Position numbers and translations under genes: made by a program
Notes under the pieces: model-generated
What the model was told of the DNA's origin: nothing
Database searches by the model: none
The model's input: the letters and a program-made list of their open reading frames with translations, nothing else
DNA from: a virus
Length of the DNA stretch: 64,000 nucleotides
IMG/VR virus record: IMGVR_UViG_3300042356_000801
Coordinates: 27,170-91,169 of that record
Reading direction: 5' to 3' (one strand)
In this document: one piece after another, positions 14,789 to 45,288 of the stretch
Layout: each line of letters begins with the position of its first letter
Position numbering within the stretch: position 1 is the stretch's first letter

Positions 14789-14887
14789 TTTTAGTATTTG
14801 GTTTTAGTAAACAATGCGAAAAACCTGAATACTTACCGTTTAGTGCAGTCTTTGTCGTTTATTATCGAAGAATACACAAGGAGCCAC

Positions 14888-17800
14888 ATGCCCTCTTCTA
14901 AGAAAAATTCCGACATTCAGTACAAGGCTGCACCGCAAGGAATGGTGAATCTTGACGAAGCCGAAGGCATCGTTGAATGTTTTGTCGCAGGTATTGGTAA
15001 CAAGGACTCAGTCGGCGATGTTTGCGCCCCTGGAGCTTTTGGCAAGAGCCTAATTAGGCGTAAGCCTCGCGTTGTTTGGGGTCATAACTGGAACGACCCA
15101 ATCGGTAAAGTCCTTGATATGTATGAGGTTCAGCCAAGTGACCCTCGTCTTCCTAACAAAATGAAGGCTGCCGGAATTGGTGGCTTGTATGCCCGCGTTC
15201 AGTTCAACTTGAAGTCAGAAAAGGGCCGCGAGGCTTTTGCAAATGTGGCATTTTTTGGCGAAGAACAAGAATGGTCAATCGGCTACAAGACGATTAATGC
15301 CAAGTTTGACCCACAGATGCAAGCAAACATTCTGTATGAAGTTGAGCTTTACGAAGTTTCTCCAGTTCTTCATGGTGCCAACCAGCTGACAGGAACAATT
15401 TCAATAAAGTCCGAAGACCAGTCATCAACAGTTTTAGTAAACGAACAACCATCTATCGACGGCCTCAACATAAATGAGCTTTCTTCAGTTTTAGATGCGT
15501 TGAAGACGATTGCGTCCACCACAGATGAAAAGTGTGGACCCGGAATGCCAATGGGCATGCCTGCGCAAATGCCAATGGTGATGCCATCTGGTGGACCAGG
15601 AATGCCTTCTGTATCAAAACCAACACAACCAACCGCCCCAAGAGAGTCCGTGAAGCCAGAAGTTCCATCAATGCCGGAAAACCCAATGCTTGTAGCAATT
15701 AGAAGAGAATTGGTCGACAGGACTGGTTCAAATATTATTGTTCGTTCCGTAATAGAAAACATAGTTGTATTCGACAGAATTACTACTGATGGAATTTCTA
15801 GTACTTATAAACTTCCTTTCAACTATGCAAACAATGAATTCATGTTTGGTAAGCCAGAGAAGATAAACACACAGCCAACTCCAGAGTCAAGTATCCCAAC
15901 AATGCCAGGAATGCCTCAACAGTTCGGCGGGTTCGATACTGGAAAATCTTTGATTTCGTTTGATGACTTTTCCTGGGTAGGTTTTAACCAGCAGATACCA
16001 GCTCAACAAGTTGATATATCTACGCTCAACAATGTCATCAGTAATCTTGAAAAGATTATCGAAGAGAAGTCGACATACATAATCCCCGTTGACATAAACA
16101 ACGCATTTGAAGTTAAGCAAGCAATTGACCCAATTCTTGATTACTACAGAGTTGATGCAACTGTTACTGAAGACGGCATCGTTGTTAAGTCTCTTGATAA
16201 CGAGTTCCTTGACGCAATGGACATTGCCACAAAGGGTGTGTTGCGCAGTATCGGCAACATGGTTGGCCGTGCGGTAGATAGACCAAACATTGGCAAAAAT
16301 AGGCGTGATAGAAATCCTAACCTCGCATCAAGAGGTCGAGGAATTGGTTCCCGTGGAGCTGTAGTAAGACTCGCCGACGGAACGATGTGGGACCCAAAAA
16401 CCGCACCGGACAGGAACAATAACGGCATTGTAGGTGAAGGCCTTACAGACGGTCGCGGCATGTCTCTGTCCCAGCCGGACCCAACACCAAGTGGACCCAA
16501 CTCAATCGATGCTCCAAAGACACCTAAAGCCCCTAAAGCTCCAAAGAAGGCTACAAGACTTTCTTCTGGCGGAGATGATTCTTCACGTGCTCGCGACCTT
16601 GCTAAGCAACGGGAAATGGATAAGGCAAGAGGTGCTAGTGCTACAAACCCAGTAGGAAAAGAAGCCGTCGAGCAAGCCAAAAAACTTGAAAGAGAAAGAG
16701 CAGCAGCACGTCAATCTGAAACTCGTCTTTCTTCTGGGCGCGTCATAATGTCGGACGGTCAAATGGAAATATCATTTGATGAAGAAGACGGAGATGGCAT
16801 CTATGACGCAACAAGAGACGGTTTCCGAATAATTAGAAATGAACGTGGCAGCGGCGGTGGCAGAAGATTCCCAGAATCCACAGCAACGTACGGCGGGTCA
16901 GGTTTAAGTGAAGCCGAGAAAAAAGAAATTCTTGACGTCGTCAAGGATAGTTCCAACCCATTGGTTCAAAAAATATTGAAGGGTTCATTTCCTAGTAGCT
17001 TGTCCGATAAACAGTGGGCTGTTCTTAAAAGGGAATTTGAGAAGAACAAGAAGAAAACTCCTTCTGGCTATATAAGCAATGTCCGAAGCGGTGGAACAGT
17101 TGCTCCTGGAGCAAAACTTGATGGCGGAATTGCTTATCTTGAACCAGACCACGCCAACGACAAAGACTACGAAAACCTACGTGACGCAATACAGACAGCA
17201 ATGCGCTCCAATCAGATGCTTCGTTTTGACTACAGTGGAAAAAACAGAGAAGTAATTCCAGTAAAAATTGAGAAGAACAATAAAACTGGTAAGTGGAACT
17301 TGACTGCCCAAGACGACACTGGGGCAAGAAAGCTTTTTAGTCTCGACAAGATAACTCCGTCTTCGGCAGAGCGCCTTTCCTCTGGTGAGTGGACAAAAAC
17401 TGATGACGGCATTGAGATGGACGCGCCGGATATTGATGGTGGTTACCTAATACAAGGCAACTCCAAAGATGGATTTGTAGTAACTAGATTTGCGGACGCT
17501 AGACGTAACGGTGGACAAAATGCTAACGAATACGAACATGACAAAGTTTTCACGTCAAGTAGCGCGGCTAAGAAGTGGGCAGAAAGAAACTACAAACTAA
17601 TCAGCGAAGAAATAGGCAAAGAGGACGTAGAAATAAGAAAAGCTGACGCAGAAAGAAGCGCAGACTTTGCAGACATGACTCCAGAAGATGCCGCAGATTA
17701 TGCCGCTTGGATGGACGAAGAAACCTGGAGAGACAGGGACCCAAGATTCTCCTCCGGTGAAGGATATTGGGTAGATGCTGCAGAAAAAGAAGCAGGAAAT

Positions 17801-23800: not shown

Positions 23801-26800
23801 GCCCGTTTTGCGCCAGATGGCGAGTCGGGTTCACGAATCCAAAGAAGACTTTCTTCTGGAGAATACTTTGGACCACCTCCAACCGGCAGCGGCAAGTACA
23901 ACAGCAGAGAACAGGTCCGCGCATCGTTGGATGCGTTCCACAGTGACCCGGGTACCGCAGTAATCCCGTCCGACATGCTGGGCATACTTGGTTCTGTTCC
24001 AAAGGGTAAGGAATCTCATATTCTTAATGCAGAAGTTGCAAAAAAGATTATTGCTAATCCAGATATGGAATATTCGTCAAACAACGGCTGGCCCGTTGAC
24101 GCAGGCAGGCTTCTTGACTTTATTGAAGTAAACGAAGAAGATGCCATCAGAACTCTTCGCGAAATTGGAGACGCTCAACGTATTTCTTCAATTCTTGGCA
24201 TACCAGAAAAAGATGCGCAAGACATGCTTGACGGCAAGCCCGTATACATCATGGCGGGAACGGCTGCAGACATGCTTGACGACCTCAAGGAAGGAAAACA
24301 TTACCTAGAGGCTGGCCAGCTTGGTAATGAGGACGTAACAAGAATCTGGGGATTTGATGGTGCTCCAAAGTGGGTTCGCCATAGCGATATCGCTACCCCG
24401 GAATATGACCTTGACGAACAAGGCAGGGTTAACTGGTCTAAAGAAAAATGGGACAGTCTTTCAAGAGAACAATTTGATGCTGAACTAGCAAGAGGCAAAA
24501 ACCCACCAGAGCCTGTTTACGAATCTCCAGTAGAGCGTTTTAACTCGGAAGCAATTTTTGACAACCCTAAGTGGAATGCTCGTAGTGGCTCGTTCAGGAA
24601 CCCAGTAGTGGATTCAGAATTTGCAGTAGCACCACGAGCCGCAAGAAGGTCAGAACAGCTAGAGCCAACGAGAGCACCATCTCAGGCAAGAGTTGGCGAA
24701 AAAACCGTAATGGCTGACAAGGAATTTGCAGCAAAGTGGATTAAGCGTGGACATAGCGTTACTGCTTCAAACATGATGGACATTCTTGGGGTTGAAAGAG
24801 ATTCTAAAAATCCAGAACCTTCAACTGAAGAGCTGAACAGGCTTATTGAAGCAATGAATGAAGTTAGTGCAAAAGTAGGACTGACTCCTTTGTCGGTCAC
24901 AAGGGCACCAACAAAAAGTGACCTTAAAAAATTGGGAATTTCCGACGAGTTTATGCATGCTCTTGTTGCTTCTGGAAAGTTTAAGAACATGAAAGAAGCA
25001 ATGGCAAGTCTTGGTGATTCAAGATTTGATTCATTGGCTGCCGAATATGACTCAAGAATGCTTTCCGATGCCGCTTTGTTGAGAATAAAAGACAAAATGA
25101 ACAAAGAAGGCGTTCCCAATTCAGTAGCTGTTCTGATTGAGGCAATTACTGCTTCTTTTGGCCGCAAGCAAGCATGGGAAAAGCGAATCAAAGAAGGTCG
25201 CGTATCCATCAAGGGTGACATGAAGGAAGACGGAATGATTAGCGATGCTAAACTTTCTGAACTGCTTGGGCGAGTGAACGATGCTCTCGCAAGGTCTGGA
25301 TACCCAGAAATAAGTCAAGACGAACTTTTCCCCAAGGACGAAACTGGCGGATATGTTGACAACCTTAGCTCTGCTGTTCCCGGTGCGCCAAGAATGTCTT
25401 CAGGTCAAAGGTTTGTAGCAAGAACATCTTCAAGCAGAAGAGCTGACGCTATGAACGATGCTGCTGCTCGTAGAGAAGGCAATACTTCTCGACTTTCAAG
25501 CGGAGAAAGCCTTCCATTCAAAGACGAAAACGGGAAGCTTGTTCCAAGCAATATTAGTCAAGCCGCAAAAGATGCAACACCCGCTAATCCTGGATTCGAC
25601 AGGGAGCCGCTGATTCAAAGAAAGACTCCACATAGAAATTTAGAAGATGTTGAAAAAGCGCTCAAGACAAGACAAGCAATTTCCGAACTTTTCACAATGA
25701 ATCGCAAAAACACTCAAGGATTTAGCGTGTACGACTACCAAGACGAACTAGTAAAAGCTGGATTCCCACTGGAAGAAATTGAAGAAATGATTGATTCGTT
25801 TGTTCGACTAGATTCCTACATTGATGATGTAGAAAGACATTTCGAAATAGCAAGAGAAAAACTGGATGAAACACTTGAAGAGATAGAAGACAATCTTTCC
25901 AAGATTGAAAGACTCAAGGGAGAAAGAGCAGACGCAATCAAGAAGTGGGGGAACACCGAGGACAACTACTGGGTGCAAGCAATAGATGACAAAATTGCTG
26001 CTGCAATGATTAAAATCGATAAGGCATACCAAGGCGGAATCGGTGGAGAAGACGGCCGACTCGGAACACTTCATCCACAGCTTGAAGAAATGATGAGCGC
26101 GATGCCGGGCTGGACCGAAGGTCCATACGGAATGGGTGACGACATAAATCGACGACTTCTTAAAGTTGAAGCTTCTATCAGCAAGGCTGGCGGAAAAAAG
26201 AAGGCTGTTCCAGTAACTGGAATTGACTTTGGAGTACCAGAAGGCACAAGACTTTCTTCAGGAAAAGCAGAAGAGTACTACCAAAACCTCACAAGCCATC
26301 TCATCAACATGATTGAAAAGTCACAAAAAGATGGTGGCAAGTGGGAAGCACCGTGGCACAAGGCCGGCAATATGCCGAGAAACGCTTCTACAAAGAATAT
26401 GTACTCAGGCGGAAACCTCTTTGCTCTCATGCTTGCAGCAGAAGAAAAGGGCTACGCAACTCCTCATTGGGGCGGATTCCAGCAATGGAAGAAGCTCGGC
26501 GGAAGCGTAAAGAAGGGTGAAAAAGCCACTGCGATTCTTATGCCTAAAACGATGTTTGGAGATGAAATTGACCCAGATACAGGCAAGAAGGTTCGCAAGT
26601 CTAAGGGTATCTATTTCACAACCGCACACGTGTTCAACCTCGACCAGGTTGAGGGTATTGACCGCGAAGAATTCTTGAAGCTTCCAACCGATGCTCTTAC
26701 TCCAGAGCAAAGAGTCGGAAAACTTGAGGACGCAATCAAGGAAATTGGTGCAACAATCAACACGGGAGACGGAAGCAGGGCTTACTACTCTCCTCGTGAA

Positions 26801-29187: not shown

Positions 29188-32100
29188 ATGACGGGTACGT
29201 TTAAGACTAAAACAAGAGTCTATACATCACCTGAATTTTTTACCCCGATAACGGGCCGAAAGAGTTTTACAGACGCCGCTATCGACTTTAGACGCGGGCT
29301 TATAGAGAACTCTTCCATGGCCGTTCTTAATGCTGACCTTTCTGTAAAGGCCGCAATGGGGGCGGGTCTTTCTGCTTCTGCTTCATCCATAGGGCAATCG
29401 TCTCAAGGAACATCTCCAAATACTGACGGTAAAAAGCGTGTCAACAAAGGCGGCGTTCCGGGGATGGTTGAGGACGAGCGTGGATTTAGGTACATGCCCG
29501 ATGCAACATGGGGTCCAGACAAAGTTCTCAAACTGTTTCCTTCTCCAGAAGAAAGACAGTCTTCTAATAAAGTTCCAAACTTTGGTTTTGTAGACAGAGA
29601 ACCAATTTTTACTCCTCAACAGTTTGTTGAACAGATGGAGAAAAAACCCAAAATCAGGATGTCTAAGTACAAAATAAATACACGTACTGGCGAACCCATA
29701 GAAGACACTGAAGTTGAGTTTGACCGAATGAGGTTTGGTAAAACTTTTAAAGTAAACCCAGACATCTCTAACGAAATAGAAGAAGACATATCTGACGAAA
29801 CATCAGGAGAAATGCAAGAGAAGAGTCTTGGCTCGACCCTGAAGCAAAGAATGCCAGGTGCAACTATTGCTGGTAGAGCAGCCGCTCGCTTTGGTGTGAT
29901 TATGGATGAGCTTGGGAAGATGCGTTGTCCTCCTGGGACTCCAGCGGCAAACCAATTCACTGACATGACAGGTTCTAACTGTTTTGGAATAACTCCAGGA
30001 AATATGATTTCTGAGGCAATCAACCTTGCGCAAAGACTAATTCCATCCGATGATTCAAGACGTACTGATGGTTTTACCAGAGGGGTAGCCAACTTCTTCT
30101 TCGACATGGAGAATGGCATATTTGGCAACAACGTCTGGTATCACCCAGACGGAACCAGAATGAAGCATGGTGAATGGCGTAAGTTCCGTGAAGCTAACGG
30201 TGTTGCAAGAAACGAACGCTGGATGGTCAACGGCGTTGAGCGTGTTTATGCAGAGATTGACGCTCAAGAGGCGCGCTTGACCGACCTTTATCAAAAGCTT
30301 GACATTGATACAAGAGACAGCAGAAAAGCAACAAACGAACATCTATACGAGGCGTTTGAAAAACTAGAACAATCAGGCGTTATAACGGCAAAGATTGAAG
30401 GCAGGCCTACTGAGGCTGATGTTGAAGCAATGATGACTTCACGCCTAAAAAATACCGACGCACACTGGAACACTCGCTCGAATGAAGAAAAAGCACTGTT
30501 TCTCAAAATTGAAATTCAAAGATATAGAGAGCTTGAGCGTGCGCACCTTGAGGCTTTCCTTGATGAGGTAATCAAAAATCCTGAACACATGAAGTCTATC
30601 CGGGCAGTAAGAATGCATCCAACCGGCAAAGACAGAGCTTCGTATGGCATAGACGGCATAGACAGAAGAACCAATATGCCTTACGGTTCAATCAATATAG
30701 ACATACCTAAATCAATGGAATTTGAAGACTCTCTTCTTCCAGCTCTCTCCCCTGATGAAAGACTCAGAATATGGGCAGAAGGAGGGATGTCTGAGGCACT
30801 CAGGTCTTCCACTGTAAAAGATTTCCTTGTTAACTCAAACGCCTATGCCGGTCAGATGATAGCAATGGTCGACGGCGGTCGTGGTCTTGGCCGCCATGAT
30901 ATGAAGCACGAGATAGCTCACTCGATTCAGGCTGCAGCCATTTTTGAACACATGAAGAGAGAACTTGATGCTAGGGGTTCTCTTGTTATGAACACCAAGA
31001 ATGGACCCAAGACCATTACAAGTGTTGCCGAACTCGATAACGACATGCTTGCTGCATTAATGATAAATGAAAACTATATGGGGATTGACCTCGATTCATT
31101 AAAAAGCCTCCGTTCTAGAGGGGACATTGTTGCGTTGTTGGGGGGTAAATATATTGATGACGTTGACAATCAATATGATGGCAAAAGGCGTGCTGCTGAA
31201 ATAGGTGCAGAAATATGGGCACTTCGAAGCGCAGGTTTAATATTCGGAGATGACGTAGACGCGGCTCTTGAGTACATGGACGATGTTGCTTCTGGAAAAA
31301 TAACAGCAGACAGAACAGTTGCAGACAGCGTTCTTACTAGAAGAGTTTACGATGACCATTTAGACGGTACCAGGAGAGTTCGTGAAGCTAGAGAAGCCCG
31401 CGAAGCTGCTGAAGAAGCAGCAAGGCTGGCCGAAAGTGCAGATACTCCAGATGAAGAATTTTTTGATGCTGATACCAGGGCTGCAGAAGACAGGATGTCT
31501 GATGCCAGGGAGGCATATGCTCTAGAAAAACGTGCAGAAGTAAAAACCACAAAAGAACAAGCCAAGACAATGACAGAAGAAGAGATGATTGATTTTCTCT
31601 CTTATTCAACAGAAGGTTCTGACGCTCTTACGGAAATGCTTGATGCAGCCGGAGAGGCCGGTGAAGAGCCGGACTGGATGAGCGTCATGGATAGGGACAC
31701 TCTTGATGCGCAGTCAAAATCCGTAATAGATGAGTGGGTAAAGCGCTTTACAGTTAGAAGAAGTCCTGAAGCCTTAGAAAAACTATTAAATATGGTTGAC
31801 GACAAGCGTGAATCAAGAGGAACACTTTCTCCTGAAAAAATAGAAGAACGTCGTCATCGTGAATACCTAGAGGGTGCTACGGAACGAGCAAAGGACTTGG
31901 ACTTAGAGGACCTCGTTGAGTTCTCTTCAAACTGGGAAGAACTTGCTTCATCCGAAGGGATTGAGGCTCCAGAGCGCACTCGTAGAAAAGAAGCACGCGA
32001 CATGTACAGGGATGAGTACATCAAGAGAAGAACAGAAGGCCCTGATTCTGTTTCTAGAGAAGATGCCCGCAAAGAGTTTAATGCAAAATTAAAAGAACTG

Positions 32101-35100
32101 CGCAAGCCAAAAACTACTGCTGAACGCAAAAAACGAGACAGGGTTAAGCCAAAGAAGTTCAATAGCCACAAAGGCAAGGATGGGGCACACACTTTTGCCA
32201 CACAAGAAAGAGCTCGCCTACTGGAAGGCGCAACAACAGCAGAAAAGATTGCTTTTGTTGAAATGGGCAGTGGTGAAACCGATGTAATAAACATGATGGC
32301 CGGCCATTCTGAAGGAATGGCTTCTGCACGAGCAATACAAAGAAGAAATACTCGCCTTAAAAAAAATGGCATCCTGCCTGATGGCCTCAATCAACACGAG
32401 GCTTCAGTAGAGGAACAAGTAGAAAACTTCTATATTCCACTTCTTGAGCTGATGGATAAATCTTCACTATCTCAGATGGTGGAAATGCACCTAGACGGTA
32501 ATGAGGATTCTGGACTATATATAGAAGACCTGCTTAGCGGTAATGCCCCAGAATTTACTATGGGTATAGGCACCGGAACCTTAGTAACAAACAAAACAGA
32601 TTTTTCTGACGGCAAGAAGATAGTAATCCGCGTGCCAGCAGGAAGCAGAGCTTTATTACCTGACTGGTCATATCGTTCCGACTCCGACGACGGAGAACAG
32701 AAGATAATGATTCCTCCTTCAAAGCTTCACCTTGTTGAGATTCGCGATGATGGAACTGTTGTTCTTGAAGTCGGCGAACAGATGGGAACAGAAGCAACGT
32801 TAAAAACTGCAATAGAAGAAATAGGTCCTGGAAACGGTGGAGCAGGAGATGTTGCCTATAGGACAGGTCTTCAGAAAAAACTAAACAAAGTTGTCGACAA
32901 AAGAATCACAGAGCGCCGCCGACAGGGGATGTTCGACCCCGATAGTAAGTCTCCAATTGAGGAAGAAAGATTCAGCACAACAGCAGACACTGCTGCAACT
33001 GGTGCTGGGTTTATGCCGGATAGGCCTCCTTCTGCTCCAAGTCGTGCCACCACCGATAGGGGCGACATAGGAACTGGCGACTACGATGACGATTTAAGCC
33101 CAGCTGAGCGCAGATTCCAAAGGGAAGAAAGAAACAGAAGAAGAGGAAACCCAAGACTTTCTTCTGGAGCTGATACTGAAAAACTTGTTTCAATATCTGG
33201 TCCGCAAGATGCTCGCAGGGTTATTGATAGCAACCTGCCAGCATCAGTTAGAACTGAAAAAGAAGCATATACCATTTTGACTGAACTTGCAAAAATGGCT
33301 AGGGAAGCCAAGGCAAAAGGGAAAGACGCTCCTAATTACGATTTTTGCAAAGTTTCTATTCCGGGAACAAACCTATTTTGCGGTGACTCTAAGGGAATTC
33401 CTAGAAAAAAAATGCCTCAGTTTAGTGGGAAGCCAACTCCTGGTTCACCAGCAGATTCAAGACCCAAAGATAAAGATGGCGGGGTCGACGGCACGCAAGA
33501 CTTTATTAAACACATGGAAGGACTGGGAGTAAAAGTCGAAGAAAAAGAAGTTCTTGCGTCAACGTTAAGAGCATCCCAGAATGAACTAGTTGGAGAAAAA
33601 GTCGCAGGGATGATGACCAATGAGAACTTTGACCCTGCAGGTGAACCAATTTTTGTTAGCCGAGATGGTTATGTTATTGACGGTCATCATAGATGGGCCG
33701 CCCAAGTTGGTCGAGACCTTGAAGACGGAAACCTTGGTGACCTTCCATTAAACGTAAAAGTTGTGGACATGGACATCTTGGAAGTTCTTGAAGAAGCAAA
33801 CAAATTTGCTCAAGAGTTTGGTATTGCTCCCAAAACAGCAGGAAACGACGCGGCCCAAAACAGGTTATCTTCTGGTGCCAAATGGGGGCAGATGCCTTCA
33901 AACAATCAACAACTTGCTCGCCTTCTTGAGCCATCAAATAATGATGGCTTCAACGAAATATACGGCCCTCCACAGACACGCCAAGAAAGAATCACCCAGA
34001 TGGCTGAGATGCAGTCAGAAGTGATGACTTCTCTGCGTGAAATGTTTGACAACGTTCCAGGAGCAGGAGATTCTCTTGGACTTGACCTGAACCACATAGA
34101 CCCATACCTTGTTGACTTCATTAAGAATTCTTCAGATGAAGAAATTTATGAACTTATTTCTCAATCCGCAAAAAACCTTCATGAGAGTTTTGACGCACGA
34201 CCACGAGTGCGCATGAGGCAAGACGAGCTTGATGGGTTTGCCGCTAGCGGCAGGTACGGAAGAGAAAAATCTTTTAATAACGAGCGTTTCTCTTCTGGTC
34301 TTGTAAAAAAGGGTATAAAAGCAAGGGCCAAAGAACGTGCCATAGAAATAATTGCCGACAGAATTGGCATGGATGAAGACTCACGCGAAGTGGCAGAGAT
34401 GGTGTTCAATACGGCCTCTGCACTCAAGTACGGCCCAGAAGCAGCACTTACTCGCTTGGCTATAGACCTCGGAAGAAGAGGAAGCAGAGAACTTGCAGAA
34501 AAAACCGTAGAAGAACTTGTTAAGCGAGGAAAAATAACCGACGAACAAGCAAAATCTATTCTTTCAAAACTGGACAAGGTTGCACCAGAAGGACTTCCAG
34601 AACCATTAAAGCGCGGTGTTGGAAGAGCAGCAAGAGCAACAGCAGATGCTATTGATACTCCAGAGAACAGAGAGCGCTTAGAAAATGCCCGTGAAGCAGT
34701 CGGAGAAGCCGCTGGAAGAGCGAGAGAAGCGGTTGGTGAAGGTGCCCGCAATATTGCTGAGCGTGGCCGTGAGAGGCTTAGGAAGCTCCGTGAAAGAGAC
34801 GATGCCGGAAGTCTACCTTCTGCACCGGAAGATGTACCGTTTGGTGATTTTGACCCAGCAGATGCTCCCGTAGGAAGACTTGCTAGCGGAAGAAGATTGG
34901 ATAGAAGAGTTTCTGGTTCGGATAATGGTCGCGAACGCATTATGGAAGGCGCAAACGTAACTCGCACCCGCCTAAGTAGTGGTGAGACGCCAAAGATAGA
35001 CAAGCCGAAGAAGCCAAGCAGGCCAAGAGACCCCGACAACGGACCAATGACTGGAAAGTTCATTGACATATTCCGTGGCGTTAAGTCATATCAAGAAATG

Positions 35101-37941
35101 CTTGACAGATATAACGAGCAAGAAGTTATTTTCTTTGACTACGAGACAACAGGTTTTAGCCCTACGGACGATAGGCCTGTTCAGATTGGTGCAGTAAAAA
35201 TGAAGGGCGGGAAAGTCGTTGAAAGATTCAATGTTTTTGTTAACCCCGAAAAAGAACTTAGCGACTGGTCAAAGGAAAATCTACTTAATGCTGACGGTAA
35301 ACCTCTAACCAACGACTGGTTATCAGGTCAATCTTCAGTCAACGAAGGCCACCAGCAGCTTATTGACTTCTTTGGCCCTGATGCCCTCCTTGGTGGACAG
35401 TACACGCCTTTTGACCTTGGCTTCCTTGAAGAGTCACTAAAGAACGCAGGAATTGAGTGGACCCCTGCTGGAGTCATAGACAGCAAGGCCCTTGCTGATG
35501 AACTTCTTCCAAGATGGACAGCAGATGGCGGAGATGGTCCTTTTGCTCTTAACCCAGATGGCACAAAGTACGCAACAAATAGCCTTGGACCGCTTTCTGA
35601 TTATCTTGAAGTCGAACTGACAGCATGGCATACAGCAGACGCAGACTCTGAAGCGTCAGCAATGATTGTCCAAAAGATACTTGAGCGTGCAGCAGAAAGA
35701 GAAGACACTCCAAAACATCTTCTTGATGTTGACAACCTTCCATCTGTTGTTGCTGAACGCAGGGCTAGACACAAGCTCGACATGGACAAGTACTTTGCCG
35801 ACCTAAAGCAGTACAAGGTTGACAATGAAGCATACGAAGCTTCTCAAACCGGAGAAAGACTTTCTTCGGGAGCAACCATGGATGACAAACTAGGGAAGAC
35901 TGTCGGTATTGACGAACTTCTTGCCGACCCAACAATGGCTGAAGAATTACGCAAAAGAAGCGCGGACATAAAAGCACTTTCTGACAGGGAAAGAGCACAA
36001 AGATTTACCGACCCTAACGACCCAGACTCTATCTATGTAATTCACTTTGGAGCGAGCCAATTAGAAGGCGGCCAAATAGACCCTGCTCGTTCGCGAGGGC
36101 AGGTGGGTTCAAACGTCCCTGCGGCAGGAAATACACGTTTGGTAAATGACCAGACAGCCAGATATATGGTTGGATTACGCAATACCGCAAGACGAGACCT
36201 GTCTATTCTGGAAGAAATAAAACGTCAAATGGAGACTGATGGAGTTGTTGACTTTGAGGCGATAGCAAGAACAGACCCGAAAGACTCCATGAGGGCGGGA
36301 AGAGCAAAAATATTGCTTGGTGTTAAACGTACTGACCGTGACTACGAGCGTTCAACGTTCACGCCTCCTTACTGGAACCCTGAAAATTTTGACGCTCAAA
36401 TCGCAAGCGAAAACAGAACCCTATCTAGTCTTGACAAGGTTGCCGACCAGTTAATTGCAGACGACTACCAGTACACGAGTACATACAGGGCTTCTGGATT
36501 ACGAGATTTACGGAGCTCTTACGGAGGGAGGTACGCAGAAGGCGGCTCTACAGAATGGGGCGACAACTCGCCGCGCTCGTCAACTACCGGTATTCACATA
36601 TTAAAAGTAAAAGTAGGCGACAACGCGATTGAGCAAAATAGCGTTGGAGAAACTCACCTTGTTGGTAAACACACCCCAGTTGCTTCACTTGTCGTGAGGG
36701 CAGATGATTATGATGATAATCCTGCTAATGACACATGGACCGGATGGATGGATATGGCGATTGAGGCCGACATCAAGAAAGGGTCAGGTGAGAGGCTTTC
36801 TTCCGGTGCAACAGGACGTTCCCCAGGACTAAAAACAAACCGCGACAGACCCATGAGTGAATACGGAATGGACTGGAAGCCTGAGTATTCAGATAAAGAG
36901 TGGGTCAAGCCAGCAAAAAATTGGGAAGGATGGGATGATGTCCCTGTTACTGAAGTTGACTTGTCTTCAGAAATCCGCCCAACAGAGTCACATCTTAAAG
37001 GTTCCTCTATAGACAAAGTCGTATCTGGAGAAGAAGCTTTCAGAGATGGCTACCATCCAAACGTAATCATAGATACCGATGGCAAGATGTACGTATCTGA
37101 CGGACATAACAGAGTTGCAATGCACCGCGCTCTTGGCAATGAAAAGATGACAGCAAGAGTTATCGACCTCCGTACACAAGATGCTCCATGGGGAGACAAG
37201 ACTCCGAATACAGCCGAAACAAGACTTTCTAGCGGAGAAGGCCCACGGTCAGGAAAGCCAAAACGAGCAAAAATGTACAAGGGCTACACATTAAACGAAC
37301 CAGCCAACCCAACTCCAAAACCAGGCGAATACCCAGACGACGTGGTGGAAGCAGCTACCAAGCAAAGGGCAAAAATAGCAGAGGTAGAAGCGGAAATCAC
37401 CAAGCTTCTTATTGACCTTGCCGACAAGAACAAAGCACAGATGGAAGGTCTTGACTTTAGGATGAAAGCCCTCAACTCGCTAATGCGCAAGATAGCCGCA
37501 GAAAAAGACAGCGAGCACGGTGGAGACGCACAAAAAGCAGCAGAAGCGATGTCTGACGTAGTTAGATACACAATGTCCTACGAGCCAGACGACTACGTTG
37601 CCGGCGTCAAGGACGTTATTGCTCAAATGCAAAAACTCGGGTATGACCTGAGGGTAAAAAATTACTGGGAAGCCGACGACCCGTATCAGGGAATCAACGT
37701 CGCGGCAATTCACCCTAACGGAACAAAATTTGAACTTCAGTTCCACACTCCTCAGTCTGTTGCCGATAAAGAGAAGATTCACGCAATCTACGAAGATTAC
37801 AGAACCGAAAAAGACTACCTAAAGCGTCTGGTTATGTACCGAAAAATGGTAAATTTAGCTAACAAGATTGGCGTCCCAATTCCACCAGATGAGCTTATGA
37901 AAATCGGCATCATCAAAACGCAACCATTTACACCGAGGTAA
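29188..37941 (+). CDS. Giant polyvalent head protein 2 (2,917 aa) with RLSSG-delimited enzyme modules
   Basis: Single ORF with AAGGA SD; domains listed below. Confidence 0.85.
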   Translation: MTGTFKTKTRVYTSPEFFTPITGRKSFTDAAIDFRRGLIENSSMAVLNADLSVKAAMGAGLSASASSIGQSSQGTSPNTDGKKRVNKGGVPGMVEDERGFRYMPDATWGPDKVLKLFPSPEERQSSNKVPNFGFVDREPIFTPQQFVEQMEKKPKIRMSKYKINTRTGEPIEDTEVEFDRMRFGKTFKVNPDISNEIEEDISDETSGEMQEKSLGSTLKQRMPGATIAGRAAARFGVIMDELGKMRCPPGTPAANQFTDMTGSNCFGITPGNMISEAINLAQRLIPSDDSRRTDGFTRGVANFFFDMENGIFGNNVWYHPDGTRMKHGEWRKFREANGVARNERWMVNGVERVYAEIDAQEARLTDLYQKLDIDTRDSRKATNEHLYEAFEKLEQSGVITAKIEGRPTEADVEAMMTSRLKNTDAHWNTRSNEEKALFLKIEIQRYRELERAHLEAFLDEVIKNPEHMKSIRAVRMHPTGKDRASYGIDGIDRRTNMPYGSINIDIPKSMEFEDSLLPALSPDERLRIWAEGGMSEALRSSTVKDFLVNSNAYAGQMIAMVDGGRGLGRHDMKHEIAHSIQAAAIFEHMKRELDARGSLVMNTKNGPKTITSVAELDNDMLAALMINENYMGIDLDSLKSLRSRGDIVALLGGKYIDDVDNQYDGKRRAAEIGAEIWALRSAGLIFGDDVDAALEYMDDVASGKITADRTVADSVLTRRVYDDHLDGTRRVREAREAREAAEEAARLAESADTPDEEFFDADTRAAEDRMSDAREAYALEKRAEVKTTKEQAKTMTEEEMIDFLSYSTEGSDALTEMLDAAGEAGEEPDWMSVMDRDTLDAQSKSVIDEWVKRFTVRRSPEALEKLLNMVDDKRESRGTLSPEKIEERRHREYLEGATERAKDLDLEDLVEFSSNWEELASSEGIEAPERTRRKEARDMYRDEYIKRRTEGPDSVSREDARKEFNAKLKELRKPKTTAERKKRDRVKPKKFNSHKGKDGAHTFATQERARLLEGATTAEKIAFVEMGSGETDVINMMAGHSEGMASARAIQRRNTRLKKNGILPDGLNQHEASVEEQVENFYIPLLELMDKSSLSQMVEMHLDGNEDSGLYIEDLLSGNAPEFTMGIGTGTLVTNKTDFSDGKKIVIRVPAGSRALLPDWSYRSDSDDGEQKIMIPPSKLHLVEIRDDGTVVLEVGEQMGTEATLKTAIEEIGPGNGGAGDVAYRTGLQKKLNKVVDKRITERRRQGMFDPDSKSPIEEERFSTTADTAATGAGFMPDRPPSAPSRATTDRGDIGTGDYDDDLSPAERRFQREERNRRRGNPRLSSGADTEKLVSISGPQDARRVIDSNLPASVRTEKEAYTILTELAKMAREAKAKGKDAPNYDFCKVSIPGTNLFCGDSKGIPRKKMPQFSGKPTPGSPADSRPKDKDGGVDGTQDFIKHMEGLGVKVEEKEVLASTLRASQNELVGEKVAGMMTNENFDPAGEPIFVSRDGYVIDGHHRWAAQVGRDLEDGNLGDLPLNVKVVDMDILEVLEEANKFAQEFGIAPKTAGNDAAQNRLSSGAKWGQMPSNNQQLARLLEPSNNDGFNEIYGPPQTRQERITQMAEMQSEVMTSLREMFDNVPGAGDSLGLDLNHIDPYLVDFIKNSSDEEIYELISQSAKNLHESFDARPRVRMRQDELDGFAASGRYGREKSFNNERFSSGLVKKGIKARAKERAIEIIADRIGMDEDSREVAEMVFNTASALKYGPEAALTRLAIDLGRRGSRELAEKTVEELVKRGKITDEQAKSILSKLDKVAPEGLPEPLKRGVGRAARATADAIDTPENRERLENAREAVGEAAGRAREAVGEGARNIAERGRERLRKLRERDDAGSLPSAPEDVPFGDFDPADAPVGRLASGRRLDRRVSGSDNGRERIMEGANVTRTRLSSGETPKIDKPKKPSRPRDPDNGPMTGKFIDIFRGVKSYQEMLDRYNEQEVIFFDYETTGFSPTDDRPVQIGAVKMKGGKVVERFNVFVNPEKELSDWSKENLLNADGKPLTNDWLSGQSSVNEGHQQLIDFFGPDALLGGQYTPFDLGFLEESLKNAGIEWTPAGVIDSKALADELLPRWTADGGDGPFALNPDGTKYATNSLGPLSDYLEVELTAWHTADADSEASAMIVQKILERAAEREDTPKHLLDVDNLPSVVAERRARHKLDMDKYFADLKQYKVDNEAYEASQTGERLSSGATMDDKLGKTVGIDELLADPTMAEELRKRSADIKALSDRERAQRFTDPNDPDSIYVIHFGASQLEGGQIDPARSRGQVGSNVPAAGNTRLVNDQTARYMVGLRNTARRDLSILEEIKRQMETDGVVDFEAIARTDPKDSMRAGRAKILLGVKRTDRDYERSTFTPPYWNPENFDAQIASENRTLSSLDKVADQLIADDYQYTSTYRASGLRDLRSSYGGRYAEGGSTEWGDNSPRSSTTGIHILKVKVGDNAIEQNSVGETHLVGKHTPVASLVVRADDYDDNPANDTWTGWMDMAIEADIKKGSGERLSSGATGRSPGLKTNRDRPMSEYGMDWKPEYSDKEWVKPAKNWEGWDDVPVTEVDLSSEIRPTESHLKGSSIDKVVSGEEAFRDGYHPNVIIDTDGKMYVSDGHNRVAMHRALGNEKMTARVIDLRTQDAPWGDKTPNTAETRLSSGEGPRSGKPKRAKMYKGYTLNEPANPTPKPGEYPDDVVEAATKQRAKIAEVEAEITKLLIDLADKNKAQMEGLDFRMKALNSLMRKIAAEKDSEHGGDAQKAAEAMSDVVRYTMSYEPDDYVAGVKDVIAQMQKLGYDLRVKNYWEADDPYQGINVAAIHPNGTKFELQFHTPQSVADKEKIHAIYEDYRTEKDYLKRLVMYRKMVNLANKIGVPIPPDELMKIGIIKTQPFTPR
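30880..31260 (+). other. Domain: zincin-like metallopeptidase
   Basis: HEIAH at 30907 and downstream AEIGAE. Confidence 0.55.
33390..33830 (+). other. Domain: ParB/Srx-like #1
   Basis: IPRKKMPQ, LRASQNEL..EKV, PIFVSRDGYVIDGHHRWAA. Confidence 0.8.
35120..35690 (+). other. Domain: DEDDh 3'-5' exonuclease (DnaQ-like)
   Basis: FFDYETTGF, QIGAVK, PFDLGFL, IDS, WHTADADS. Confidence 0.88.
36930..37180 (+). other. Domain: ParB/Srx-like #2
   Basis: IRPTE..L, VII..DGKMYVSDGHNRVAM.RALG...M.ARVID. Confidence 0.75.
37440..37941 (+). other. Domain: RelA/SpoT-like nucleotidyltransferase (small alarmone synthetase-like)
   Basis: RMK..NSL.RK, SDVVRYT, VKNYW, YQGIN, FELQFHT. Confidence 0.8.
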
Positions 37942-37943
37942 TC

Positions 37944-38192
37944 ATGAAAAACAGATTTTTTACAAAAGGCGAAAACGTTAAATTATTTCTACTGTCCATA
38001 GACGAGGGAAAAGAAGAGCTTCGTGAGTGTTTTCTTTCAAATGGCAAATGGGAAGACACATCAGACTTGATGAAAATAATGATTGACGGCTTCAATGGGA
38101 TAGAGGAAATAGACGAAAAAACAGCGTCCGAACTCTACAAGGACAAAGGCTTTGATGAAGCCATGTCTAAATTTGGTGGTTCCGATGGCTGA
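37944..38192 (+). CDS. Small acidic protein; candidate inhibitor of the upstream RelA/SpoT-like domain
   Basis: 82 aa, starts 2 nt after the stop with GAGG SD; role inferred from position. Confidence 0.5.
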   Translation: MKNRFFTKGENVKLFLLSIDEGKEELRECFLSNGKWEDTSDLMKIMIDGFNGIEEIDEKTASELYKDKGFDEAMSKFGGSDG

Positions 38193-39204
38193 CGAAAAAC
38201 CAAAAGAAGAAGAAGCACCAAAGAGGGTTGCTGACGCTGCAAGGCGTGCTTATGAAACACGCATAGGCATAGAGCCTGGAGTCGATGATTCTTTTAGACC
38301 CGTAAGCGGATACCTAGTGAACAGGTCGCAAGACGCCAAAAGAAGGGCGATGCTCAAAAGCAACGTTCCAGAAGGTATGGCTGCGCCGTTTGAGACTTCT
38401 GAAGCAGACCCAGCGGGAACAGACTTGTTGGTTCAGGGCGAAATAGAAGTGATTCTTAAGCCTGGAGTAGCCAAAAGAACTTCATACACAAGAGGCGATG
38501 CCGTGTCTACCGGCGGCAGGGCTGTGTCGATGAACTCGGACCAACAAGAAGACATACTTAACGCCATCATTCATGACGATGGTCCTAATGCTAAAAAGAC
38601 CATGGCAAGAACAATGCTTGGTCTTCTTAAAGCATCCCTGGATGATGATTACTCGGGGGTTAATGCCCTTCCGGATTCTAAAGGGAGACTAACCCCTGTT
38701 GATAAAGATGACCCATCTGCAAACGAAAGACGCAACGAGTCCTACGAGGCGATGATTCTTGGTGGGTTTGACGCAGAAGACGTAGAAGGAATTCACTTTC
38801 CTTATTCAAAAATACAGAAATTAGCCGAAGACGAAAATGTTACTGATTTTATAAATAACAACTTCATTTCTTCACGCCTTAAAAAACTGAACAACAGCGC
38901 GGAGTCGGCCAGGATATTCTCAAGCCTACCCTCGGCATCAGAGATGAAAACTGAATCTATAACAGCCTTGAAGGAATTTAGGGCGGCCAAGAAGATGAAA
39001 AAGATGTACGAAGGAATTGGTGTCGATTACATAAAAATATCGCACCCCAAAGGCATCAACATTGAAGACCCACGGACATACGACAGAAACGCTTCTCCAC
39101 TTGCTGACGTAGAGTCAATACTTAAGGCAAAAATAACAAAAGAGATAGACGAAGAAATACAAAAGTTGTTTAATAAAAAATCCGGCATGAAGGAAGAAAA
39201 GTAA
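38185..39204 (+). CDS. DUF3626-like protein (possible ADP-ribosyltransferase fold)
   Basis: RPVSGYL, GEIEVILK..V.KRTSYT.GD, YEA.ILGG....DVEGI; ATG 38185 preferred over track start. Confidence 0.5.
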   Translation: MADEKPKEEEAPKRVADAARRAYETRIGIEPGVDDSFRPVSGYLVNRSQDAKRRAMLKSNVPEGMAAPFETSEADPAGTDLLVQGEIEVILKPGVAKRTSYTRGDAVSTGGRAVSMNSDQQEDILNAIIHDDGPNAKKTMARTMLGLLKASLDDDYSGVNALPDSKGRLTPVDKDDPSANERRNESYEAMILGGFDAEDVEGIHFPYSKIQKLAEDENVTDFINNNFISSRLKKLNNSAESARIFSSLPSASEMKTESITALKEFRAAKKMKKMYEGIGVDYIKISHPKGINIEDPRTYDRNASPLADVESILKAKITKEIDEEIQKLFNKKSGMKEEK

Positions 39205-39644
39205 TGGGGGCAGTACTCGTAGGGACGGCTGGCGACAAGAAGCTATATTACGTTGTCGACTCAAAGGATTCACTCAAAGACGGGATAATTGAAGACCCTG
39301 ATGGCTCAACCCACGAGGTTTCCTTTTTTTCTTACATAGGAAAGACAACGAACATAAGACCTTTGAGAGCCTCGGAGTTTCACAAATTTTTATGGGATGA
39401 GCCTGAAGAAAAAGATAAAAGAAAATGGATGGAAATTTTTATCCAAAAACTTGACGACCCCGACAAGAACCTAATGGAAGGTGTCGCTGTTCAGGATTCA
39501 ACAGGTAAAGCCAGAAAAAAGAAAACAAAGGTTGACACTAAGGTTAATGCTTTTATTAACAATAATCGCGTTAGCAATTCTTCTGGTCTTCAGTTTTCGA
39601 CTAAAATGGTAGTATCTGATAGCAAACGCGCGCAAAAGAATTAA
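39204..39644 (+). CDS. Hypothetical protein
   Basis: TAATG-coupled ORF in head operon. Confidence 0.6.
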   Translation: MGAVLVGTAGDKKLYYVVDSKDSLKDGIIEDPDGSTHEVSFFSYIGKTTNIRPLRASEFHKFLWDEPEEKDKRKWMEIFIQKLDDPDKNLMEGVAVQDSTGKARKKKTKVDTKVNAFINNNRVSNSSGLQFSTKMVVSDSKRAQKN

Positions 39645-43917: not shown

Positions 43918-45288
43918 ATGTCGGAAGACACTTCAAGAATCAAGGAACTGCAGACCGCACTCCGTGTAAAAATGGCAGACAACAAGGCTATCGCCGATTC
44001 ATTCAGAATCGAAGATGGAGCTGTAGTCGTCTCTGCAGACCAAAAGACAGCGTTCGACAAGAACATGCAAGATATCAAGGAAATCAAGGGACTCATCGAG
44101 GGTCTTGAGACCATGGGCGGAGTATCCAGCTGGGCATCAGAGCCTCAGGATACAGTTGCTGGCGCATTTGCTGCAGCAGCAAACGATGTAAAGCATCTTT
44201 CCAGCCGTGAAATCAAGAGCATCGGCGAGATGTTCCTCGATTCCGCAGAATTCAAGTCACTCAACGGTGGCCGTAACGGTGCAAACATGGCTGCTGCATG
44301 GCAGGCTGGCGTTTCGCTCACAGGCTTCAACGTTAAAGATGTTTACTCAGCACTTCCAAGCGGCACAATGGGCCGTGGCGCAGACGCAGTATTCGGTTCA
44401 ATTCAGCGCGATGCGCTGGTAACACCACCACAACGCACAAAGCGCGTTCGTGACCTGTTCCCAGTTCGCACCACAACTGCTGCAGTTATCGAATACTTCC
44501 GTCAGATTGGCTTTACCAGCCTTTCAGCTCCTGGCGTAACCAACTCGTCTTACTCAACCAATAACGCAGCTGCTCCAGTAGCAGAGCGTGACGGTGCAGC
44601 ATTTGGAATCAAGCCACAGTCAGCTTTCCAATTCGTTGGTGAGCAGGCTCCAGTACGCACACTTGCACACTGGGAAGCAGCACACCGCAACGTTCTTGCT
44701 GACGAACCACAACTTCGTTCAATCATCGACAATGAGCTCATGTACGGTCTTCGTCTTCTCGAAGATTCACAAATCCTCAACGGTGACGGCACTGGCGAAA
44801 ACTTGCTCGGTGTTTTGAACACCCCTGGTATCCAGGAGTACGCATGGTCAGACGGTGCAGTATTGCCAGTAGCAGACACAAAGGCTGACGCACTTCGCCG
44901 TGCGGCAACCTTGTCGTTCCTTGCTTACTACGAGCCAACCGGCATCGTTCTTCACCCGAACGACTGGGAAGACATCGAGTTGACCAAGGACGCAAACGGT
45001 CAGTACCTCATCGCAGTTTCGGTTGCAATGGGTGGCGAGCCAAAGGTATGGCGCATGCCAATCGTTGATACCCCTGCAATTGCAGAAGGTACAGCCTTGG
45101 TTGGTGCGTTCGGTACCGGAGCTCAACTCTATGACCGCGAGCAGGCAAGCATTCGCATTAGCGAGCAGCACTCTGACTTCTTCGTAAGAAACGCAATTGT
45201 CATCTTGGCTGAGCAGCGTCTCGCCCTTGCTGTCAAGCGTCCAGAAGCATTCGTAGTTGTTGACTTCGACGGAGCTCCAGAAGCCTAA
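43918..45288 (+). CDS. Major capsid protein, HK97 fold
   Basis: Coiled-coil delta domain, VRDLFP..TT, TLAHW, LAD.PQLRS.I.NEL.YGL...ED.QILNGDG.GENL.G, F.RNAIVILAEQRLALAV.RPEAFV. Confidence 0.95.
   Translation: MSEDTSRIKELQTALRVKMADNKAIADSFRIEDGAVVVSADQKTAFDKNMQDIKEIKGLIEGLETMGGVSSWASEPQDTVAGAFAAAANDVKHLSSREIKSIGEMFLDSAEFKSLNGGRNGANMAAAWQAGVSLTGFNVKDVYSALPSGTMGRGADAVFGSIQRDALVTPPQRTKRVRDLFPVRTTTAAVIEYFRQIGFTSLSAPGVTNSSYSTNNAAAPVAERDGAAFGIKPQSAFQFVGEQAPVRTLAHWEAAHRNVLADEPQLRSIIDNELMYGLRLLEDSQILNGDGTGENLLGVLNTPGIQEYAWSDGAVLPVADTKADALRRAATLSFLAYYEPTGIVLHPNDWEDIELTKDANGQYLIAVSVAMGGEPKVWRMPIVDTPAIAEGTALVGAFGTGAQLYDREQASIRISEQHSDFFVRNAIVILAEQRLALAVKRPEAFVVVDFDGAPEA

Follow-up and report, generated by a model that had tools for sequence, protein, structure and literature searches.

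We examined a 64,000-nucleotide stretch of viral DNA (positions 27,170 to 91,169 of IMG/VR record IMGVR_UViG_3300042356_000801; hereafter the window), in which a giant protein encoded among head-morphogenesis genes ends in a RelA/SpoT homologue (RSH) module and is followed at once by a small gene, P0002. Our analysis suggests that the pair is probably a toxin-type small alarmone synthetase carried on a giant head protein, accompanied by an IapK/Tis1-like inhibitor, and that the enzyme would be packaged, cut free and injected. The elements concerned, in window coordinates and with lengths in nucleotides (nt) or amino acids (aa), are:

29188..37941, + strand: giant protein 2 (P0001), the carrier, a polyvalent head-module protein of 2917 aa (open reading frame (ORF) translation)
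37222..37236, + strand: RLSSG linker directly before the RSH module, a candidate proteolytic processing site at which cleavage may occur
37237..37941, + strand: RSH SYNTH module, a predicted nucleotide 3'-pyrophosphokinase of the Apk/EAS type, 234 aa plus stop (sequence, profile and fold matches)
37935..37938, + strand: Shine-Dalgarno sequence GAGG, 5 nt before the P0002 ATG (read from the sequence)
37944..38192, + strand: P0002 ORF, 82 aa, a candidate immunity (inhibitor) protein of the IapK/Tis1 kind

The module comprises residues 2684-2917 of P0001, with the stop codon (TAA) at 37939-37941. A phmmer search of Protein Data Bank (PDB) sequences matched it to the exported alarmone synthetase SaEAS (8VX3; E 8e-15), and a profile built from 40 homologues recovered 8VX3 at 2.7e-36 and Tas1/Apk1 (6OX6_A) at 2.6e-5. 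The AlphaFold2 model of the module was highly confident (pLDDT 95.3, pTM 0.89); its Foldseek matches were exclusively RSH synthetases, led by SaEAS (TM 0.73/0.83) and followed by Tas1, RelP, RelQ/SAS1, CapRel and long Rel enzymes (RelSeq). Together, these sequence and model comparisons place the terminal module among the RSH SYNTH domains of the toxin (Apk/EAS) clade.

In isolate phages, relatives of the module were confined to the C-termini of MuF 'head morphogenesis' proteins. The closest belong to S. pneumoniae prophages (tblastn, 35% identity, E 3e-21, to MuF-RSH C-termini in 35 Streptococcus phage records), and MuF proteins of Pasteurellaceae phages were also matched, as were the C-termini of PHROG 7625/2841. 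The family at large is extensive: at E<=1e-3 it includes 3417 representative clusters, in many of which the module stands at the end or in the interior of proteins that reach 3815 aa. Some proteins hold 2-6 RSH copies, and in certain large ones (P0142, P0122, P0057) 3-6 separate stretches match the module, forming arrays of alarmone-synthetase-like domains.

Residues associated with catalysis and ATP binding could be located in the module by alignment (numbering within the module):

37459..37491, + strand: Syn1-like motif R75-x-K77-xxx-S81-xx-R84-K85 (RMKALNSLMRK), predicted to bind ATP phosphates (homologue alignment)
37555..37572, + strand: Syn2-like motif D107-VV-R110-Y-T112 (DVVRYT), invariant in the 40 homologues
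37657..37659, + strand: K141, counterpart of the ATP-binding K154 of SaEAS, nearly invariant in the 40 homologues
37684..37698, + strand: Y150-Q-G152-I-N154 motif (YQGIN), in which N154 corresponds to SaEAS N169 (alignment)
37732..37749, + strand: catalytic motif E166-L-Q168-F-H170-T171 (ELQFHT), corresponding to SaEAS E182 and Q184 (alignment)

In the Syn1-like motif, K77 and K85 are invariant and R75, S81 and R84 nearly invariant. In the HMMER alignment D107 corresponds to SaEAS D121 and R110 to R124, the alanine of the crystallised D121A variant lying opposite the aspartate of the query. The D121A substitution inactivates SaEAS, and ATP-binding residues R124, K154, N169, E182 and Q184 are common to SaEAS and Apk1 (PMC12691689). 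The active site of the module is therefore intact, because all six of these catalytic and ATP-binding residues are kept and their counterparts (D107, R110, K141, N154, E166 and Q168) are invariant or nearly so across homologues of 32-71% identity. The same conservation, together with a highly confident model of SaEAS-like geometry, makes it extremely improbable that the module has degenerated into a catalytically inactive RSH fold kept for a structural role, a possibility to which its sub-threshold Pfam score lends some weight.

By analogy, the product of the module is most likely (p)ppApp, because the nearest characterised phage relatives are Apk2 enzymes and the partner is of the Tis1/IapK type. 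Apk2 was shown to make (p)ppApp exclusively, and motif swaps did not convert its specificity (PMC12226406). A different substrate is conceivable: small alarmone synthetases of the CapRel/PhRel/FaRel2 type pyrophosphorylate the 3'-CCA of tRNA, and such an activity would halt host translation. The fold is common to both groups, CapRel is among the Foldseek matches (rank 14, E 6e-5), and a phage-encoded example exists in PhRel of mycobacteriophage Phrann (cited in PMC12691689). Nevertheless, we regard this activity as very unlikely, since PDB sequence and profile searches reached only SaEAS and Tas1, both of them nucleotide pyrophosphokinases, the closest phage relatives are Apk2-type enzymes that make only (p)ppApp (PMC12226406), and in the systems described in PMC10083569 and PMC12226406 a Tis1/IapK partner accompanies Apk1 and Apk2. 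The original prediction, made from the sequence alone, had described a RelA/SpoT-like terminal module and allowed for either alarmone synthesis or tRNA pyrophosphorylation. Its four motifs (RMKALNSLMRK, DVVRYT, YQGIN and ELQFHT) all lie where it had placed them, and the E values for 8VX3 and the 3417 clusters put the resemblance far beyond chance; as to activity, the tRNA option is the less likely of the two.

P0002 starts 2 nt past the stop of giant protein 2, with its ATG at 37944, and its own stop is overlapped by the ATG (38185) of a 339-aa gene (ATGGCTGA). The Shine-Dalgarno sequence, the 2-nt gap and the overlapping downstream start argue that these three genes are translationally packed as one unit. 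The protein is acidic (isoelectric point (pI) 4.5; 19 D+E vs 12 K+R), and its AlphaFold2 model (pLDDT 87) consists of four strands, a helix, a strand and two helices. We found 33 clusters of homologues, 61-99% identical to P0002 and having a common length and pattern. Short lake metatranscriptome contigs of related strains carried eight variants in P0002, and 8/8 were synonymous, which is clear evidence of purifying selection. Contigs of this kind (~150-210 nt each) covered window positions 38009-38315 (P0002) and 37759-37919 (the RSH tail); they are a weak hint of transcription that may reflect DNA carry-over in the RNA library. P0002 is a real and conserved gene. A tblastn search of P0002 against isolate phages returned chance matches only, and a scan of genome contigs for host-encoded copies found none.

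We compared P0002 with the immunity protein of the published locus order apk2-iapK-aph1 (PMC12226406). S. pneumoniae phage IPP60 has, in this order, an Apk2-type gene, a 69-aa ORF and an HD hydrolase; from the 69-aa ORF, called iapK by synteny, a 17-member family (A5) was built. Alignment of a broadened P0002-like family (A4) to A5 with hhalign gave a probability of 93.1% (E 3.2e-7) over 61 columns, spanning residues 2-64 of the 69-aa IapK. An earlier comparison using the narrower P0002 family had been weak (E 0.0018, 15%), and the score rose only after the family was broadened. Pairwise BLASTP of P0002 against IPP60 IapK and against Aaphi23 ORF43 found nothing, and Aaphi23 ORF43 did not match the P0002 family by BLASTP or hhalign at any stage. 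PDB sequence searches with P0002 profiles likewise produced no meaningful match. At the structural level, VIA-align ranked Tis1 (6OX6_B) 2nd of 48,161 PDB chains for the P0002 model, at a weak Z, and the Atlas gave a single Tis1_ImmP lead (0.82). These profile comparisons support homology of the P0002 family to IapK/Tis1-type immunity proteins, and by analogy P0002 is very probably an inhibitor of the RSH module.

The strongest evidence on P0002 is its genomic coupling to the toxin clade. We fetched 80 viral loci containing RSH homologues, extracted the ORF after each RSH-bearing gene, and iterated a hidden Markov model seeded from the P0002 family on these downstream ORFs to convergence. A P0002-like domain was present in 51/62 distinct ORFs downstream of an RSH-bearing gene, and the remainder mostly follow polyproteins with an internal RSH module. 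Terminal RSH modules of related viral contigs thus almost always have this domain encoded behind them. In these latter lineages (L019-L025, L028-L030) a further 392-726 residues of polyprotein come after the module. Where internal-RSH contigs were long enough (n=3; 53, 64 and 170 kb), a P0002 homologue was encoded ~32-35 kb off in the same genome:

G008:47903-48136, unlinked P0002 homologue
G013:7377-7616, unlinked P0002 homologue
G015:168043-168282, unlinked P0002 homologue

Toxin and antidote genes therefore stay together in the genome even when unlinked. At the single internal-RSH locus that was read (L010), the P0002 homologue adjoins an SSB-like gene and lies among non-head genes. With this coupling and the homology to the IapK/Tis1 type, the second part of the original prediction is borne out: an acidic 82-aa ORF does begin 2 nt after the TAA at 37939-37941 (ATG 37944; pI 4.5), its proposal as an immunity gene is supported, and the comparison with MuF polymorphic toxins was apt, the closest isolate-phage relatives being the Apk2-type MuF-RSH proteins of S. 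pneumoniae prophages.

The downstream domain occurs in several forms. It is found as free proteins of 71-103 aa; as the N-terminal ~80 aa of 209-300-aa proteins, most of which contain an XkdF-type prohead protease domain (PF14550); and as the N-terminal part of two longer proteins, one of 341 aa that contains an ADP-ribosyltransferase domain (PF03496; L032:3698-4723) and one of at least 987 aa that matches DUF3626 weakly (L045:3693-6653). Fusions of the IapK/P0002-like domain to PF14550 lie right after a terminal RSH module in many viral contigs, at the following positions:

L039:3711-4577
L033:3728-4360
L059:742-1395
L082:1079-1858
L061:3777-4508
L054:3738-4475
L042:3709-4374

The N-termini of the protease-fused proteins matched the P0002 family by hhalign with a probability of 97.3% (E 2e-11), and when longer forms of the domain were sought in a collection of 5.8 billion proteins, mostly PF14550 proteins were returned. 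When one of the fused proteins was used to search 50,697 isolate phages, there were matches in 41 records, in each case through the protease part alone (query residues about 65-213). These XkdF homologues of isolate phages are without the antidote domain; therefore the domain tracks the toxin, not the protease.

The fusions raise the question of whether P0002 is instead a head-assembly adaptor or targeting domain that docks on the RSH-bearing protein and brings partners (a protease, an ADP-ribosyltransferase or other cargo) into the procapsid, the window phage having the adaptor in free form. Such a role would fit the occurrence of the domain at the N-terminus of XkdF proteases, an ADP-ribosyltransferase and the protein of at least 987 aa, all of them head-associated and encoded right after RSH, and it would fit the position of P0002 within the head operon of the window. 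We nevertheless consider it unlikely: the profile homology is to IapK, an experimentally shown inhibitor, with a resemblance to Tis1; the domain goes with the toxin and is missing from isolate-phage XkdF proteins; and internal-RSH phages carry the homologue ~32-35 kb away, in L010 among non-head genes. One protein could, however, act as both adaptor and inhibitor.

The fusion of the antidote domain to prohead proteases is the most interesting loose end of this analysis. One extension of the inhibitor reading, which we offer as a doubtful but testable idea, is that the antidote is built for destruction inside the capsid: it would travel into the procapsid in complex with the toxin and be broken down inside, so that the toxin becomes armed only once sealed in the head. 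In the window phage, the free 82-aa protein and the prohead protease (Peptidase_S78) domain of giant protein 1 would achieve this in trans. If true, destruction of the antidote in the capsid would explain how a lethal enzyme can be made safely and delivered in active form, and the fusions thus suggest how packaged toxins are armed.

The carrier proteins and their surroundings bear on how the enzyme would reach a cell. The gene order of the head-morphogenesis block is portal, giant protein 1, a 558-aa ORF, giant protein 2, P0002, six ORFs and capsid:

12716-14788: portal gene (PHROG 2662, E 3e-61)
14798-27406: giant protein 1 ORF, 4202 aa, with Peptidase_S78 at its start, a UvrD-type helicase, ArdC-N and MPTase-PolyVal
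14969..15400, + strand: prohead serine protease domain (Peptidase_S78) at the N-terminus of giant protein 1 (PF04586, E 4.7e-9; PHROG 3244, head maturation protease)
between the genes of giant proteins 1 and 2: 558-aa ORF
38185..39204, + strand: the gene next after P0002, 339 aa, no Pfam or PHROG match
43918-45288: major capsid gene (PF05065), with six ORFs between P0002 and it

Giant protein 2 contains a zincin HEIAH region, ParB-like modules, a DEDDh exonuclease (Pfam RNase_T match at residues 1981-2160) and the terminal RSH module, and it is matched by PHROG 2859/7625/192. Head-morphogenesis PHROGs match it at the RSH end only; in its N-terminal 2590 residues no MuF domain was detected, either as a Pfam family at E<=0.1 or as a MuF PHROG. 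Both giants lie between portal and capsid and combine several unrelated effector domains in one polypeptide with one or more processing peptidases, as expected of polyvalent proteins.

The domains of both giants are set apart by a recurring peptide. Giant protein 1 contains R[LF][SA]SG at 15 positions and giant protein 2 at 8, each of them falling between recognisable domains, and a six-frame scan of the 64 kb placed 23/24 of the peptide's occurrences in the two giants. The lone R-L-S-S-G beyond the giant ORFs (27255) falls in an open stretch of 29 aa and was set aside as chance. Relatives show module shuffling at the linkers: in one the ParB-like unit ahead of the RSH module is missing, and in another this position is taken up by ~1100 aa of different cargo. 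The terminal fusion of the RSH module behind a cleavage-like linker is kept in close relatives. In more distant lineages (alignment A3, loci L026-L091), a conserved KH[GE]xHDQSxHG or (P)RDERGRFGSG peptide stands just before the RSH module; these peptides may be alternative linker, processing or loading signals. A related phage encodes a 2082-aa giant protein (L010:191-6439) with K/RLSSG linkers and a terminal module in which an ADP-ribosyltransferase-like R-S-E pattern was seen by eye. This giant is followed by a 74-aa ORF (L010:6470-6694), which by eye gives the same layout of toxin plus small gene with a different candidate toxin.

The S78 protease on giant protein 1 could be the enzyme that cuts the R[LF]SSG linkers, and its presence there suggests that the giants enter the procapsid. 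Virion delivery may likewise be read from context, namely the position between portal and capsid genes, the prohead protease on the neighbouring giant and the linkers that resemble cleavage sites. Alternatively, the pair could act only in the producing cell and never be injected, serving late host shut-off, competitor exclusion or an addiction module. In favor of this reading, the pair is co-expressed, small RNA-library contigs cover the region, and toxin-antitoxin RSH pairs are known in cells. Yet the module is the last unit of a head polyprotein, behind a cleavage-like linker that close relatives keep; MuF and other head proteins carry homologous modules; and a stoichiometric co-expressed inhibitor would leave no activity in the producer. 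We therefore judge action restricted to the producing cell to be quite unlikely.

We favor a scheme in which the module is made late, as the final unit of a giant polyvalent head protein, while the co-translated 82-aa protein would keep it inactive during synthesis and assembly, plugging the acceptor-nucleotide site by analogy. The giant protein would be taken into the procapsid, where it would be cut at the RLSSG linker, the prohead protease on the neighbouring giant being the probable agent, and a free enzyme of ~230 aa would be released. The freed enzyme would enter the next host with the DNA and perturb nucleotide pools before phage gene expression, using ATP as pyrophosphate donor and the 3'-OH of adenine (possibly also guanine) nucleotides as acceptor to yield (p)ppApp/(p)ppGpp.

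Several observations weigh against this scheme or parts of it. The module falls below the gathering score of Pfam RelA_SpoT (PF04607; 18.6 bits vs a cut-off of 27, E 0.0024), its clade being divergent from the Pfam seed. SaEAS, the nearest relative with a solved structure, produces both alarmones with a preference for guanylate acceptors, so that the module may be a dual or ppGpp-making enzyme. In structure P0002 resembles Tis1 weakly, with a Z of 4.2 that unrelated folds equal (rmsd 3.5 A, 61/76 residues, 7% identity), although coincidence seems unlikely despite the low Z, and a Foldseek search of the PDB with the P0002 model found no match. Pfam Tis1_ImmP (PF24154) misses P0002, its family and the genome; it also misses the S. 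pneumoniae IapK family, and its negative on P0002 therefore says little. No MuF domain, Aph1-like hydrolase or integrase was found, and the biology may accordingly differ from that of Apk2. A virulent phage that injected a toxin consuming ATP without restraint would itself be harmed. Lastly, an antidote-like domain fused to prohead protease or head cargo is not explained by pure cytoplasmic immunity.

The pair is a variant of the known Apk2-IapK system of prophages and not a new kind of system. Loci of Apk2, IapK (Tis1-like) and Aph1 encode MuF toxins in temperate phages of S. pneumoniae, M. haemolytica, P. multocida and B. caccae (PMC10083569, PMC12226406). Like them, the window has an Apk-type RSH domain, 35% identical to its S. 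pneumoniae prophage counterpart, at the C-terminus of a head-module protein and a small acidic IapK-family protein immediately 3' (hhalign 93%, 2-nt gap). Unlike them, its carrier is a multi-enzyme polyvalent protein of 2917 aa in which MuF was undetected and an RLSSG linker sets off the module, and the Aph1 (p)ppApp hydrolase (HD_4) was not found in the 91-kb record or in two complete relatives; presence of aph1 is variable within the Apk2 family. Among solved structures the closest is that of SaEAS from Streptomyces albidoflavus (8VX3; PMC12691689), which has an identical set of catalytic and ATP-binding residues, whereas the window domain is a polyprotein module with a candidate immunity gene. 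The toxin of the Tas1/Apk1-Tis1 pair of P. aeruginosa (6OX6) is matched by both the family profile (2.6e-5) and Foldseek; that system differs in its PAAR domain and delivery by the type VI secretion system, and the similarity of P0002 to Tis1 is weak.

Phage-type polyvalent proteins offer a further comparison. The parts of the survey by Iyer et al. (2017; PMC5512222) drawn on here list RelA/SpoT as a domain of such proteins and propose their packaging and proteolytic processing. The window giants resemble them in having many effector domains, a head association and processing peptidases, with ArdC-N and MPTase in the sister giant. They may differ in two features, a repeated R[LF]SSG linker and an IapK-like gene coupled to the RSH module: the parts of the survey retrieved by a search for terms describe processing by MPTase and mention neither. 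Apk2-type toxins have been described on MuF proteins in prophages of host-associated bacteria; here the same pair is a cassette in a linker-segmented giant, and the toxin domain belongs to a large family of >3400 representative clusters with carriers of up to about 3800 aa.

The lifestyle of the phage also sets it apart from Apk2 carriers, MuF toxins having been reported only in temperate phages (PMC5576092). It is a lake-water phage of ~150 kb, and integrase/resolvase genes were not found in complete relatives: in G001 (148 kb, with terminal repeats) and G015 (170 kb), searches for either a tyrosine integrase or a serine recombinase were negative, as was a search of the 91-kb record itself for a tyrosine integrase. 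The phage is apparently virulent, a reading that stems from these search negatives and hence from absence of evidence. In an apparently virulent lake phage, the pair cannot therefore serve competition between lysogens and non-lysogens, and a role early in infection, in host takeover or counter-defence, is more plausible.

The window comes from a 91-kb IMG/VR virus record with an estimated completeness of 57%. No isolate phage matched the region by megablast, and the same DNA is contained at full word share in 22 lake-water metagenome runs from 2020-2024; the phage is an uncultured lake phage, abundant and recurrent in lake water. Two genes downstream of P0002, a 146-aa ORF (window 39204-39644) represents a conserved gene of the head block; where the RSH module is internal, its homologues (36-49% identity) come directly 3' of the giant polyprotein.

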